Origin: a phage
Sequence record: PZ809289.1
Reading direction: 5' to 3' (one strand)
Length of the DNA: 64,000 nucleotides
Shown here: positions 15,881 to 61,706 of the stretch, piece after piece
Position numbering within the stretch: the first letter of the stretch is position 1
Layout: every line of letters starts with the position of its first letter
The notes under the pieces: model-generated
Told to the model about the DNA's origin: nothing
The model's input: only the letters and a program-made list of their open reading frames with translations
The model's database searches: none
Made by a program: the position numbers and the translations under genes

Positions 15881-15908
15881 AAACCTATCAACTACAGGAG
15901 ATTACAAA

Positions 15909-16367
15909 ATGTCAGAAATTAATTCAGAAGTATTCATCCGCCGCAACAAATTACGTCGTCAGTTCGAAACCGAATTCCGTGAACTGAATGCGTCCATCAA
16001 AAAAGCCGCCATTAAGAGCGGAGTCCCAGCCTTCTTTATTAAGTACTCTAATCACTTGTTGGACCGTGCTATCCAACGTGAAATCGACGAAAAATACGTT
16101 TTTGCTTTATTCAAGCAACTCCATAACCATGTTAAAGAAATTCATGAATTTTTAATCCAGGAACCTCTACCTGATGTAGAATCCGAAATTGTCCCTGGTA
16201 AAGTGTATCGTCCATTGCGTCTCGAAATTACCGATAAAACCTTATGGCTAGGTATGACAGTAGACCGTAAACATCCTGATAAAGGATACTCATTAAAATG
16301 TCGTATGGCATTTGTTAACTCTAAACGTTTAGAAGGTAAAACCAGCACGAAAGTAATCTATCTTTAA
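15909..16367 (+). CDS. regB: RegB endoribonuclease
   Basis: 152 aa; EVFIRRNKLRRQFETEFR...HLLDRAIQREIDE...RPLRLEITD matches my recollection of T4 RegB; ATG 15909 after GGAG, far downstream of track start. Confidence 0.8.
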   Translation: MSEINSEVFIRRNKLRRQFETEFRELNASIKKAAIKSGVPAFFIKYSNHLLDRAIQREIDEKYVFALFKQLHNHVKEIHEFLIQEPLPDVESEIVPGKVYRPLRLEITDKTLWLGMTVDRKHPDKGYSLKCRMAFVNSKRLEGKTSTKVIYL

Positions 16368-16379
16368 TAATGAGGTCTC

Positions 16380-16919
16380 ATGAAAAAAGTATTAGCCACT
16401 TTACTATTGACAGTTAGTATGTCTGCCTATAGCGTAGAGCCTACTTTCAACAGTGAGCAACTCGACAATTTGCATTATGCATATGCTTTCGGTGAACAAT
16501 ACCAAAAGTCGGGAAAGTTCAAAGAAACCCCTAATCAAAAAGGATTAGGATATATTATGGCCGGATTACTATGGCAGGAATCATCCGCCGGAATTAATCA
16601 AGGTTTAAATAAAGATAAGCACCATGCTTATGGCATGTTCCAAAATTACTTGCCTACGTTAAGAAGTCGTGTTCAACAGGTAGGTTGGAAGATGTCTGAC
16701 AAAGAAATAATTCGTATGGTCCAAAAACGACAGAACAGTGCCTCTTGGGCCTACATTGAGCTGTCTTATTGGATTGATGTTCACAAAGGTGACCTGAGAA
16801 AAGCGATTGCTTCTTATAATGCGGGCTGGAACGTCAAAGCAGGCAGTAAATATGCTTCTGAAGTTCTAGAAAAGGCCAATTATCTAAAATCTAAAAAGAT
16901 GTTTGAGGCGGTGTATTAA
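16380..16919 (+). CDS. secreted lytic transglycosylase-like protein (T4 vs.1 position)
   Basis: Signal peptide; SLT-type motifs E-S (LWQESSAG), GMFQ, YNAGW. Confidence 0.6.
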   Translation: MKKVLATLLLTVSMSAYSVEPTFNSEQLDNLHYAYAFGEQYQKSGKFKETPNQKGLGYIMAGLLWQESSAGINQGLNKDKHHAYGMFQNYLPTLRSRVQQVGWKMSDKEIIRMVQKRQNSASWAYIELSYWIDVHKGDLRKAIASYNAGWNVKAGSKYASEVLEKANYLKSKKMFEAVY

Positions 16920-17276
16920 ATGATTAAGCAGATGACTATAGCGCTTATGTTGATTGCTCCGGGAGTATTAGCGTCACAAGTTGGTGATAGTAATAATTCA
17001 ATTGTCGAGTATGCTACCCGTACAGCAAAAGATTATTGTCATCCGAGCAATACTGAATGCATTATCGAATTCAGTTCAAAAATCACAGCTGCTTTTAAAG
17101 ATGGCCAGAACGACGTAGAGCATCGCCGAATGAAAGAGAAAACTCTTTCTAAAAGATACGAGCAACGTCTAAACGTTACTGAATGTATTCCATCTGATAA
17201 AAAGTACAAAGAAATGTGCGCGTCTATGGTAGACAGACTCGTTGACTCATACAACCGAGGATTAAACTCTAAATGA
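16920..17276 (+). CDS. secreted/periplasmic protein (T4 vs position)
   Basis: N-terminal signal peptide, Cys-containing mature part. Confidence 0.45.
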   Translation: MIKQMTIALMLIAPGVLASQVGDSNNSIVEYATRTAKDYCHPSNTECIIEFSSKITAAFKDGQNDVEHRRMKEKTLSKRYEQRLNVTECIPSDKKYKEMCASMVDRLVDSYNRGLNSK

Positions 17277-17740
17277 TTATTGATTATATTAAGGGCGATA
17301 TCGTCGCCCTGTTTCTTCAAGGTAATAATGTTGCACACGGGTGCAACTGTTTCCACACAATGGGTTCAGGTGTAGCTGGGCAATTGGCTAAGGCTTATCC
17401 GCCTATTCTCGCTATCGATAAAACTACTTATTTAGGCAATTTGGCAAAACTTGGCACGTTTACTCAAGCTACAGGTAATAATGGCCAAATTTGCTATAAT
17501 TTATATACCCAATACGAACCAGGCCCTAATCTTGATTATGGTGCTTTAGTAAACTGTATGATAGAATTAAATCAACAAGCAAAAGGTCTTTTGTTTAAAC
17601 CAAGAATTTATATCCCTCGCATTGGTTGTGGTATTGCTGGTGGTGATTGGGACAAGGTTTATCAATTGATTAATTTGTTTACTCCTGATATTAATTTAGT
17701 GGTGGTAGATTATGAAAGCCCATTACCCGCATCCGTTTGA
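17273..17740 (+). CDS. macro-domain protein (putative ADP-ribose binding/hydrolase)
   Basis: VAHGCNC...GSGVAGQLA and GCGIAGG resemble macro-domain NAAN...GGGVAGAI and G-x-G motifs; ATGA overlap. Confidence 0.55.
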   Translation: MIIDYIKGDIVALFLQGNNVAHGCNCFHTMGSGVAGQLAKAYPPILAIDKTTYLGNLAKLGTFTQATGNNGQICYNLYTQYEPGPNLDYGALVNCMIELNQQAKGLLFKPRIYIPRIGCGIAGGDWDKVYQLINLFTPDINLVVVDYESPLPASV

Positions 17741-17924
17741 CCCTAAAAACAAAGCGGAAATTATTCGACGCTGGACCGAAACACGAGTAACTAAATGCCC
17801 TATAAAAAGTCAACACAACACCGATAAATGGTATATTGGTGAATATGTTGAATATACTTTTATAGATAAAAATAAACGTAAACAGCATGTAGAAGAATAT
17901 TGCTTAAAGGTGCAATGGTTATGA
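17712..17924 (+). CDS. hypothetical protein
   Basis: SD GGTGG; 70 aa. Confidence 0.4.
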   Translation: MKAHYPHPFDPKNKAEIIRRWTETRVTKCPIKSQHNTDKWYIGEYVEYTFIDKNKRKQHVEEYCLKVQWL

Positions 17925-18106
17925 GTCTGAGTAAAGAACAGAAAGATAAATTGTTTGAGCTTATCCATGAACTTCTAGATGAGCATGCAGAAGCAAATTC
18001 TTTTTATGATGAATATGGCCCGCTATCTCCCGAACATCAGGAAGAATTTGTCAATCGATTTGATGAGAAAGAAAACGAATTAATAGCTTATGTGAATACG
18101 CTTTAA
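17921..18106 (+). CDS. small acidic protein
   Basis: ATGA overlap at 17921; 61 aa. Confidence 0.4.
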   Translation: MSLSKEQKDKLFELIHELLDEHAEANSFYDEYGPLSPEHQEEFVNRFDEKENELIAYVNTL

Positions 18107-18115
18107 GAAGGTAAT

Positions 18116-18853
18116 ATGGCAAAGGAATTCCATTATAATTACTTGACTGTAATAAAAACCCATAAGGCAAATTATTACTATGTAGGTAAACACTCCACTG
18201 ATAATCTTTCAGACGGGTATTATGGAAGTGGTACGGTAGTTAAAAATATTTGTAAAAAGCATCCTTATAAAACTCGTATATTAGAATTCTTCGAATCTGA
18301 AGAAGAGGCGTATGCCGCCGAAATTCCTTTAGTTGAAAAGGCTAAATTAAAATATGGTAAGCATTCTTTAAATTTTGCTGATGGCGGAAGAGGTAAAAAG
18401 AAAGGAACCAAATTATCTAATTTAACTAAACAGAAAATGTCTAGGTCTAGAAAAGGAGTTAAATGGAGCAAAGCCAGAATAGAAGCTTCTAAATTCACCA
18501 CTTCTAATAAAGGTTTAAACCATTATTCCAATAGAATAGGATTTAGTGATGAGCATAAAGCTAAAATAGGATTAGCCTCTAAAAAATTAAAAGGATTTAA
18601 ACATAGCGCTGAAACCATAGAAAATATGAGTAACGCCAAAAAGGGCAAAAAGAATCCCATGTACGGTAAAAAGGGCGCTATGGCAGGAAAACCTTCTCCT
18701 ATAAGAAACGAATCTTGGAAATTTTACGATGAATTAAAACTCTTATGGGAAGAATCCAATAAGCCTTCAGCATATATGTTTAAAAAGATAGCTATAAGCA
18801 AAGGTTATCCTAATTGCTCTTATAGAGGAGTTGTATTTAAATGGCAAGCTTGA
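18116..18853 (+). CDS. GIY-YIG family homing endonuclease
   Basis: N-terminal YNYLTVIKTHKANYYYVGKHST, C-terminal repeated basic K/G-rich DNA-binding modules; overlaps start of tk. Confidence 0.7.
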   Translation: MAKEFHYNYLTVIKTHKANYYYVGKHSTDNLSDGYYGSGTVVKNICKKHPYKTRILEFFESEEEAYAAEIPLVEKAKLKYGKHSLNFADGGRGKKKGTKLSNLTKQKMSRSRKGVKWSKARIEASKFTTSNKGLNHYSNRIGFSDEHKAKIGLASKKLKGFKHSAETIENMSNAKKGKKNPMYGKKGAMAGKPSPIRNESWKFYDELKLLWEESNKPSAYMFKKIAISKGYPNCSYRGVVFKWQA

Positions 18854-19413
18854 TGTTTCACTATGCGGCGATGAATTCCGGGAAAACCGCTTCATTGCTA
18901 ACGGCAGCTCATAACTACAAAGAACGTGGTATGGGCGTACTCCTTTTAAAGCCTGCGATAGACAATAGAGAATCAAGCCATAGCATTTCGTCTCGTATAG
19001 GGATTAGTCAAGAGGCTAATGCCGTGACTCCGGATATGGACCTATACGAGTTCTATCGTTGGGCTGAATCTCAAAAAGATATCCACTGTGTATTTGTGGA
19101 TGAAGCACAGTTCTTAGAACCTGCACAGATAAAACAACTGGCAAAGATAGTAGACAATTATAATGTTCCGGTTATGTGCTATGGACTAAGAACTGATTTT
19201 CAGGGTAAACTGTTTCCTGGCTCTGCTGAATTACTCGCTACAGCAGATAAACTCGTTGAGTACAAAGGTGTGTGCCATTGCGGCCGTAAAGCTACTATGA
19301 CGGCTCGTATCCAGGATGGTATCGCAATTAAGGACGGCGCCCAAGTTTCTATAGGTGGCAACGATTCTTACGTGTCATTGTGCAGGAAGCACTGGATAGA
19401 AATAACGAGTTGA
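18841..19413 (+). CDS. tk: thymidine kinase
   Basis: MASLMFHYAAMNSGKTASLL P-loop, VFVDEAQFL, CHCGRKA zinc motif; colinear with T4 Tk. Confidence 0.95.
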   Translation: MASLMFHYAAMNSGKTASLLTAAHNYKERGMGVLLLKPAIDNRESSHSISSRIGISQEANAVTPDMDLYEFYRWAESQKDIHCVFVDEAQFLEPAQIKQLAKIVDNYNVPVMCYGLRTDFQGKLFPGSAELLATADKLVEYKGVCHCGRKATMTARIQDGIAIKDGAQVSIGGNDSYVSLCRKHWIEITS

Positions 19414-60467: not shown

Positions 60468-61037
60468 ATGAACATCGAACAAAAATGTCTTTATCAAGAC
60501 CGAATCAATTCCAAATTTTCAAAATCTGAACAAGCCTTGTTAGAGAAATGTCTGGATGCCAAAAAAGACCCTAACTTCCATTACGACCTTGACAAACTGG
60601 TTCGTAAGCATGTTACTTCGGCCGTTCCTGTAGAGCTTTATCGCGGGATTACCGCCAGAGAACTTGAGCAATTAGAGCTCCTTTCAGTAGGATGTCAATG
60701 GTCTCCTGGTCGAGTTACTTCTTTTAGTACACAATACTCTCAGGCTCGTCAGTTTGCAGGGGCATGGGAATATGGAACCAAAACCATTTTAAGTCTCAGG
60801 AATGCACCGTTCATTTTCGACTACTACAATCATGCTATCGACCTTGTTCTTGCTGGGAATGTAGACGCCCTTGAAATTGATGAAACTCGTATTGATCTCT
60901 ATGATATGGTCGAAACTGAATGTGAGTTCATGGTCTCTAGCCAATCGCGATTTGAGATTGTTGCAATCGAAACCGTCAAAAGAGACCCATATGAAATCGA
61001 GTACAAAACAATTCATTTAAAAATGTTGGATTTTTAG
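60468..61037 (+). CDS. ADP-ribosyltransferase (ModA/ModB family)
   Basis: R-S-EXE triad: LYRG, SFSTQ, ECEF; 189 aa; SD GGAGG. Confidence 0.75.
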   Translation: MNIEQKCLYQDRINSKFSKSEQALLEKCLDAKKDPNFHYDLDKLVRKHVTSAVPVELYRGITARELEQLELLSVGCQWSPGRVTSFSTQYSQARQFAGAWEYGTKTILSLRNAPFIFDYYNHAIDLVLAGNVDALEIDETRIDLYDMVETECEFMVSSQSRFEIVAIETVKRDPYEIEYKTIHLKMLDF

Positions 61038-61091
61038 TTTACAGGCAAGGAAGCTTGTGGTACTATCTTTCTATCAACTGAGGAGAATAAT

Positions 61092-61706
61092 ATGTTATAT
61101 CCGAGCCATAAATTAGCAGAATTTATCAACAATGCCAAATGCGATGATTTCCGTGAGAATACTCAGATAGAAATTGATGAAGTGTATTCTGATTTAGAAC
61201 AGAGTACCCTCTGGCAGTGCATGGAAAATAAACCAGATTGTATCCAGGAAACTCTGAACAAAATCATCCGTAAGAACCTGACTTCTGTAGTGCCTGATAA
61301 GCTCTATCGCGGCATATCTAAAAAGACTATGAAGTATCTAGAGTCCACAATGTGTGTAGGTGCGGTAATTGAATTCGACCGCGTGATGAGCTTCTCTAAA
61401 GACTTCAACGTGGCAAGGAATTTCGCATCTTATAACTTCTACGGCACATTTAATATCTTTTGTATTAATGATGCACCATTTGTGTACAATTATCAGGAAG
61501 AAATCTTTAAAATGTTATGTGCTGCGCCCCCTGAAGAGTTCCCAGGAGCATTTCCTGAATCTACCCGTGTAGCAAACTTACAATTAATCAATGATGAAGA
61601 TGAGATGATGTTCCCTGCGGGAACTACGCTGCGCGTAGACTCTATTGAGAGAAATCCTAAATGGAATAATTACACCATTTGGAATCTTTCCGTTCTTTCT
61701 TACTGA
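61092..61706 (+). CDS. ADP-ribosyltransferase (ModA/ModB family), second copy
   Basis: LYRG, SFSKDF, EDEMMF; 204 aa; SD GAGGAG. Confidence 0.75.
   Translation: MLYPSHKLAEFINNAKCDDFRENTQIEIDEVYSDLEQSTLWQCMENKPDCIQETLNKIIRKNLTSVVPDKLYRGISKKTMKYLESTMCVGAVIEFDRVMSFSKDFNVARNFASYNFYGTFNIFCINDAPFVYNYQEEIFKMLCAAPPEEFPGAFPESTRVANLQLINDEDEMMFPAGTTLRVDSIERNPKWNNYTIWNLSVLSY

Follow-up and report, generated by a model that had tools for sequence, protein, structure and literature searches.

Gene content of the tk.4 locus

The window, the whole stretch of phage DNA analyzed here (sequence record PZ809289.1), is 64,000 nt long. The ORF under study, which starts with ATG, is located among homologs of T4 early genes. 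Features of this cluster, together with a distant pair of ADP-ribosyltransferase genes, are listed below.

15903–16367: regB (Pfam REGB_T4)
16380–16919, plus strand: vs.1
16920–17276: vs
17273–17740 including the stop codon, plus strand: tk.4/adfM ortholog encoding a standalone macrodomain protein of 155 aa (ORF, Pfam, T4 Tk.4 identity, gene order, and AlphaFold2 fold)
17712–17924: tk.3 (DUF7202)
17900–18106: tk.2 (DUF7438)
18116–18853, plus strand: NUMOD3 endonuclease gene
18841–19413: tk (Pfam TK)
After tk in the gene order: rI.1, rI, and rI.-1
60468–61037, plus strand: ModB-like ADP-ribosyltransferase, 189 aa (PHROG 832, E 1.8e-37; 34% identity to T4 ModB)
61092–61706, plus strand: ModA-like ADP-ribosyltransferase, 204 aa (PHROG 832, E 1.3e-44; 39% identity to T4 ModA)

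Comparison of the window ORFs and their Pfam matches with the T4 and WG01 annotations indicated that the order regB–vs.1–vs–tk.4–tk.3–tk.2–...–tk–rI.1–rI was the same as in T4, except that the NUMOD3 homing-endonuclease gene replaced tk.1 downstream of tk.4. The start of tk.4 overlaps the stop of vs (ATGA at 17273–17276), and its 3' end shares 29 nt with the next ORF. Such tight overlaps are typical packing in T4-type early gene clusters. An ORF on the opposite strand (17039–17356, 105 aa) is antisense to the conserved vs and tk.4 and absent from related phage annotations. It was treated as a mechanical ORF, not as a gene.

The ORF 17273–17740 product was compared with T4 Tk.4 (NP_049723.1). 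Both proteins have 155 aa, and they were 53% identical with 155/155 residues aligned (E 8e-63). HGCNC, YTQ, and PRIG motifs are common to both, and both genes follow vs and precede tk.3, with tk farther downstream. Because of the full-length identity and the identical gene order, the ORF is, as judged from sequence, the Dhakavirus ortholog of T4 tk.4 (adfM). The window is DNA of a Dhakavirus, a T4-like phage: the 3.2 kb around the gene was 94–98% identical to Dhakavirus (Tevenvirinae, Straboviridae) phages such as IME540, ABTNLS3, WG01, Bp7, IME08, and JS10, and the protein has an identical counterpart in phage QL01. In GenBank records of relatives, the gene is named tk.4, "phosphatase", or "macro domain protein", and the T4 annotation of tk.4 already mentions an "A1pp phosphatase motif". 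Homologs were found in 2,734 of 50,697 phage records, and 41% of myoviruses had macro domains in a published survey (PMC9503650), so the presence of a macrodomain gene is ordinary. The gene is also already known: it is annotated as T4-family tk.4/adfM, and its function has been assigned for T4 since 2025.

Two neighboring genes were inspected. The vs.1 product has an N-terminus that looks like a signal peptide by eye, and it matched the SLT lytic transglycosylase domain below threshold (E 0.0089; 16 bits, cut-off 21.3). Possibly, Vs.1 is a muramidase-like protein of the periplasm. The 18116–18853 product (245 aa) contains a NUMOD3 motif (Pfam E 3.9e-13) and, by eye, a GIY-YIG-like N-terminus. 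In T4, the site of its gene, between tk.2 and tk, is occupied by tk.1, and in most Dhakaviruses it is empty. The stop codon of the endonuclease gene overlaps the first ATG of the tk ORF. Of the 535 phage records that matched the 3.2-kb stretch, only 4 covered at least 80% of it. The gene looks like a mobile homing-endonuclease insertion.

A stem-loop of 7–8 bp, AGGGCGA-TATCG-TCGCCCT followed by GTTTCTTC, was observed at 17292–17310 on the plus strand, within tk.4 codons 7–13 (fold z-score −2.69). The stem is made of minor codons (AAG, GGC, GTC, and GCC account for 0.31, 0.19, 0.13, and 0.20 of their families, respectively). In T4, the element is identical but for one loop base. Loci L014 and L015 carry compensatory changes (AAGGCGAC...GTCGCCTT), and locus L030 has GAGGGAGAT-TTA-ATCTCCCTT, which encodes a different peptide. 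The stem-loop is conserved in these clades and absent in many other lineages. An Rfam search of 16900–17800 gave only sub-threshold eukaryotic snoRNA/lncRNA noise and no match for the stem-loop, which could be an attenuator, a terminator, or an mRNA-stability element between vs and tk.4. Neither a tk.4-specific promoter nor a tk.4-specific terminator was supported: there were fewer sigma-70-like sites than in shuffled sequence (11 versus 14.6), and the count of terminator-like sites was not significant (5 versus 2.9 ± 1.6).

The preliminary description, made from the DNA letters, had placed ADP-ribosyltransferases at 60468–61706. The PHROG 832 matches and the identities to T4 ModB and ModA confirmed this. 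PHROG 832 is labeled "RNA polymerase ADP-ribosylase", and the tandem pair is annotated modB/modA in WG01. Pfam did not recognize either ORF.

Macrodomain fold and glutamine-type active site

The preliminary description had also called the ORF 17273–17740 product a macro-domain protein, quoting the motifs VAHGCNC, GSGVAGQLA, and GCGIAGG. All three are present, at residues 20–26, 31–39, and 118–124, respectively. Pfam Macro (PF01661) matched with 33.4 bits (gathering cut-off 22; E 4.9e-8) over profile positions 2–117 of 118, and PHROG 335 ("phosphatase") matched with E 6.4e-67. DarG was the sole NCBIfam match and the sole PADLOC match. The PADLOC DarG model gave E 2.4e-6, and the NCBIfam DarG equivalog NF048014 gave 20.6 bits against a cut-off of 250, covering only profile positions 3–138 of 338, the macrodomain part. 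NF048014 represents a two-domain protein of about 340 aa, a macrodomain plus a C-terminal DarT-binding domain. No DarG-like C-terminal domain was found in the 155-aa window protein.

The best sequence matches among solved structures were BT1257, SCO6735, Poa1p, M. tuberculosis DarG, and TARG1, for which a profile of 65 homologs gave E values of 3e-19, 4e-16, 1.4e-14, 4.4e-11, and 1.1e-17, respectively. The 65-homolog alignment was used to build an AlphaFold2 (AF2) model (pLDDT 94.9, pTM 0.89). The predicted fold is an alpha/beta macro fold with a central mixed β-sheet and two Gly-rich ligand loops. The top Foldseek matches to the model were TARG1 (E 2.9e-10), Poa1p (E 5.2e-10), BT1257, and DarG. 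With Pfam Macro above its cut-off, a macro fold obtained in structure prediction, and macrodomains as Foldseek matches, the ORF 17273–17740 product is a macrodomain, as had been described. Its nearest structural and sequence neighbors were TARG1, DarG, SCO6735, BT1257, Poa1p, and ALC1, not MacroD, PARG, or viral Mac1. Judging from the profile, solved-structure, AF2, and Foldseek matches, the window protein belongs to the TARG1/ALC1-like macrodomain class.

The ligand-binding elements located by alignment are as follows.

17330–17389, plus strand: first ligand-binding region, residues 20–39 (VAHGCNCFHTMGSGVAGQLA), holding H22, G23, N25 (codon 17345–17347), and the GxG loop (121-sequence alignment)
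17510–17512, plus strand: Gln80 codon CAA, at the position of TARG1 K84, DarG K80, and SCO6735 Gln85
17624–17644, plus strand: second glycine-rich (diphosphate-binding) loop GCGIAGG, residues 118–124

H22, G23, and N25 were present in 119 of the 121 aligned sequences, the other two having gaps, and G33 in all 121. Gln80 was found in 120/121 family members (a gap in the other), in 79/79 viral loci, and in 79/80 bacterial loci. The other active-site residues, N25 among them, were similarly invariant over these 159 loci. In loop 2, position 122 was Ala in 109 sequences and Gly in 9, and position 123 was Gly in 112 and Lys in 3. The only family member studied experimentally, T4 Tk.4, carries a loop-2 sequence found in a minority, GAGIGKGNW; the window protein has the consensus GCGIAGGDW (17624–17650).

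The nucleophile of TARG1 is Lys84, aided by Asp125, and the equivalent DarG Lys80 is essential (PMC9411070). A difference is that the two residues of this TARG1 dyad align with Gln80 and Ala122 of the window protein (profile-to-TARG1 alignment). In the multiple alignment, N25 aligns with SCO6735 Asn27 and PhiKZ AdfM N23, and the catalytic position reads LYTQ in the window protein, T4 Tk.4, and other phage homologs, MIGQ in BT1257 and SCO6735, LITK in TARG1, and FPTK in both DarG proteins and PhiKZ AdfM. SCO6735 and TARG1 residue numbers in the alignments were checked against published numbers. Because an invariant Q80 occupies the catalytic-Lys position of DarG, TARG1, and PhiKZ AdfM, the window protein falls, at the level of aligned residues, in the SCO6735/BT1257 Gln type. 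Since the catalytic residue is Gln, not Lys, the comparison with DarG advised in the preliminary description is less suitable than one with SCO6735/BT1257.

Predicted role against DarTG2 and alternative explanations

Genetic evidence exists for the T4 ortholog. In a transposon-sequencing preprint (HIDEN-SEQ; bioRxiv 10.1101/2025.11.20.689424), depletion on a DarTG2-expressing host was significant for one T4 gene only, tk.4, and a clean tk.4 knockout made T4 DarTG2-sensitive. The authors renamed the gene adfM (anti-DarT factor Macrodomain) and inferred from the genetics that ADP-ribose is removed enzymatically from DNA. The DarTG2 function has thus been shown for T4 only, and genetically only. 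T4 without adfA and adfN was still DarTG2-resistant, pointing to a further factor (PMC11825919). T4 Tk.4 was not among the enzymes tested in the ADP-ribosyl-hydrolase papers PMC11833690, PMC12879935, and PMC13036486. A second protein named AdfM, the chimallivirus macrodomain PhiKZ gp104, strips DNA of DarT2-made ADP-ribose in vitro, its N23A mutant being less active, and also rescues DarT2 toxicity (PMC13309987).

Biochemical data are available for SCO6735. It cleaves thymidine-linked ADP-ribose from DNA more efficiently than DarG or TARG1 and protects both E. coli and S. coelicolor against DarT (PMC9411070). Its Q85A mutant was inactive, the N27S mutant lost nearly all thymidine-ADPr hydrolysis, and a water-activating, backbone-mediated mechanism was proposed by the authors (PMC9411070).

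From sequence, model, and analogy, we consider it likely that the window protein is a small standalone macrodomain ADP-ribosyl-glycohydrolase that removes DarT2-made thymidine ADP-ribose from phage DNA. The preliminary description had suggested reversal of ADP-ribosylation imposed by host toxins, with DarTG hosts as a test. This suggestion agrees with the T4 genetics. In the proposed course, tk.4 would be expressed with the vs–tk cluster early in infection, as the overlap-coupled ORFs and T4 homology suggest. The product is predicted in silico to adopt a macro fold whose ADP-ribose pocket is intact. It would hydrolyze the bond by which DarT2 links ADP-ribose to N3 of thymidine in single-stranded phage DNA; T4 genetics, the biochemistry of SCO6735, and the Gln/Asn/His pattern common to SCO6735 and the window protein point to this step. 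Replication, and hence plating on DarTG2 hosts, would then be restored, as shown for T4 only. Catalysis may follow SCO6735: Asn25 would hold Gln80, Gln80 would position the distal ribose, and a water molecule would be activated, with no Lys nucleophile of the DarG/TARG1 kind. Against this explanation stand the identity of only 53% to T4 Tk.4 and the differing loop 2 (GCGIAGG versus GAGIGKG).

The window protein may also have substrates besides DNA. Promiscuity is frequent in this macrodomain class, whose targets include protein Glu-ADPr, RNA U-ADPr, Appr1p, and OAADPr (PMC9503650, PMC13036486), and this speaks against DNA as the sole target. SCO6735 itself also strips U-ADPr from RNA (PMC13036486).

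The database label "phosphatase" implies another activity, that of a general ADP-ribose-metabolite enzyme, i.e., a Poa1p-like ADP-ribose-1''-phosphate phosphatase or an O-acetyl-ADP-ribose deacetylase, for which DarTG2 protection would be secondary. We regard this as unlikely. The source of the label is Poa1p, from which it was transferred by homology, and the key position, Gln in the Tk.4 family, is Ser in Poa1p. In addition, the neighboring genes examined contained no tRNA-splicing or KptA-type source of Appr1p, and no phenotype other than DarTG2 sensitivity is reported for the T4 ortholog. A somewhat less probable explanation is that the protein mainly binds and inhibits DarT2 stoichiometrically as an antitoxin mimic instead of hydrolyzing its product. 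Catalytically dead SCO6735 Q85A, DarG K80A, and TARG1 K84A were tested as DarT inhibitors in vitro, SCO6735 being the strongest (PMC9411070), and the phage anti-DarT factors AdfA and AdfB bind the toxin (PMC11825919). However, phage and bacterial homologs alike retain H22, N25, Q80, and both Gly loops without variation, which argues for selection on catalysis, and the 155-aa protein has no DarG C-terminal DarT-binding domain.

Degradation of ADP-ribose-derived immune signals (Thoeris or other TIR products) follows a general prediction for phage macrodomains by Iyer et al. 2022, and the preliminary description had named degradation of such signals as a second option. No experimental support for it was found for the Tk.4 family, the nearest characterized relatives act on macromolecule-linked ADPr, and HIDEN-SEQ links tk.4 to DarTG2 only, Thoeris not being among the systems mentioned in the available preprint text. 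This option is very improbable. The least probable explanation, to which we give little credence, is that the protein removes or modulates the ADP-ribosylation (or RNAylation) that the phage itself places on host proteins through Alt/ModA/ModB. The ModA-like and ModB-like transferases are encoded in the same genome, but their genes are about 43 kb from tk.4 and not co-located with it, no functional link was found, and the association is circumstantial. Arginine is the residue that Alt and Mod enzymes modify, and ADP-ribose in this linkage is taken off by ARH/DraG-type enzymes and, among macrodomains, only by specialized ones (MavL), not by the TARG1/SCO6735 class. Homologs are also common in bacteria and many other phage groups with varied neighborhoods, indicating a family that is not restricted to phages of the T4 type.

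Removal of DarT2-made ADP-ribose thus remains the preferred explanation, and "anti-DarT2 macrodomain AdfM (Tk.4)" is an apter label than "phosphatase". Presence of the gene would predict resistance of Dhakaviruses to DarTG2-carrying E. coli, Shigella, and Salmonella, which is relevant to the choice of therapeutic phages.

Comparison with SCO6735, DarG, and PhiKZ AdfM

Streptomyces coelicolor SCO6735 (PDB 5E3B) and Bacteroides BT1257 (2AFC/2FG1), both Gln-type ALC1/TARG1-like macrodomains, were only 26–28% identical to the window protein. SCO6735 and the window protein have in common the Gln (Gln85/Q80), the Asn (Asn27/N25), the His, and the GCG[IL]AGG loop, which is also present in BT1257. A difference is that the extended mobile loop of SCO6735 (Lys89, Lys94) is missing in the window protein, which has six to seven fewer aligned residues in this loop. 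Lys34 and Val25 of SCO6735 are replaced by Ser32 and Gly23. Because the window protein lacks the mobile loop with Lys89, Lys34, and Val25 (Val or Ile in this type), features that SCO6735-type enzymes use for contacts with DNA, its DNA binding must differ from that of SCO6735.

Human TARG1/OARD1 (4J5S) shares the AHxxx...MGxG and PRIGCG motifs with the window protein. Yeast Poa1p (6LFR), an Appr1p phosphatase, shares the HxCNC motif, and its His23 aligns with His22. The Poa1p active-site residues are His23, Ser30, and Phe152 (from PDB mutant entries), and its C-terminal half aligned poorly (second stretch E 2.2e+02).

DarG proteins (M. tuberculosis 5M3I; T. aquaticus 5M31/5M3E) and PhiKZ gp104 AdfM have Lys at the catalytic position, whereas the Tk.4 family has Gln. 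DarG and PhiKZ AdfM also have a PPLGxGNGGL loop and no His22; the window protein has PRIGCGIAGG and His22. In addition, DarG is accompanied by its DarT-binding domain and an adjoining darT gene; the window gene has neither, and its neighbors are vs and tk.3. The window gene is probably not a DarG copy, i.e., not a stolen antitoxin. PhiKZ AdfM matched M. tuberculosis DarG at E 9e-25 and was only 20% identical to the window protein. Because of this closeness to DarG and low identity to the window protein, the two proteins named AdfM represent different branches of the class.

Bacterial Gln-type Tk.4-like homologs (80 loci, L085–L164), 35–43% identical, were found in marine Rhodobacteraceae, Hyphomicrobiaceae, Desulfobacterota, Verrucomicrobiota, Planctomycetota, and others. 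They were mostly standalone genes on large chromosomal contigs beside housekeeping genes. Most encode about 150 aa, so fusion to a DarG-like C-terminal domain was rejected. A toxin–antitoxin module with DarT was not supported either: with P. aeruginosa 505 DarT2 (PMC13309987) as the tblastn query, the best E value across the 79 viral and 80 bacterial homolog loci was 2.7, although the sensitivity of a single query is limited. Nor was a conserved bacterial partner gene apparent. Flanking ORF clusters at the 80 loci were lineage-specific housekeeping genes (an IleRS-like 1071-aa protein, several hydrolases), each present at no more than 10 loci. With crude ORF calling and one DarT query, this neighbor analysis is suggestive only. 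By analogy, the standalone bacterial homologs may resemble the orphan "guardian" situation of SCO6735, which likewise lies among housekeeping genes, as these observations suggest.

The balance tips slightly toward the name AdfM covering two independent macrodomain recruitments against DarT2. PhiKZ would have recruited a Lys-type DarG copy, and T4 and the Dhakaviruses, with Tk.4, a Lys-less Gln lineage shared with standalone bacterial "genome-guardian" macrodomains, with an SCO6735-like water-activating, backbone-mediated mechanism. The Gln-versus-Lys split and SCO6735-like chemistry were not found stated in the available portions of bioRxiv 10.1101/2025.11.20.689424 or PMC13309987. If two recruitments took place, Tk.4-type enzymes may have wider, SCO6735-like substrates (protein Glu-ADPr, RNA U-ADPr) and may neutralize more than DarT2. 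Inhibitors of, or escape routes from, the DarG lysine mechanism would not necessarily be valid for T4-type AdfM. Phages appear to reach the same counter-defence from two macrodomain branches, the T4-type AdfM with Gln, similar to SCO6735, and the PhiKZ-type AdfM with Lys, similar to DarG.
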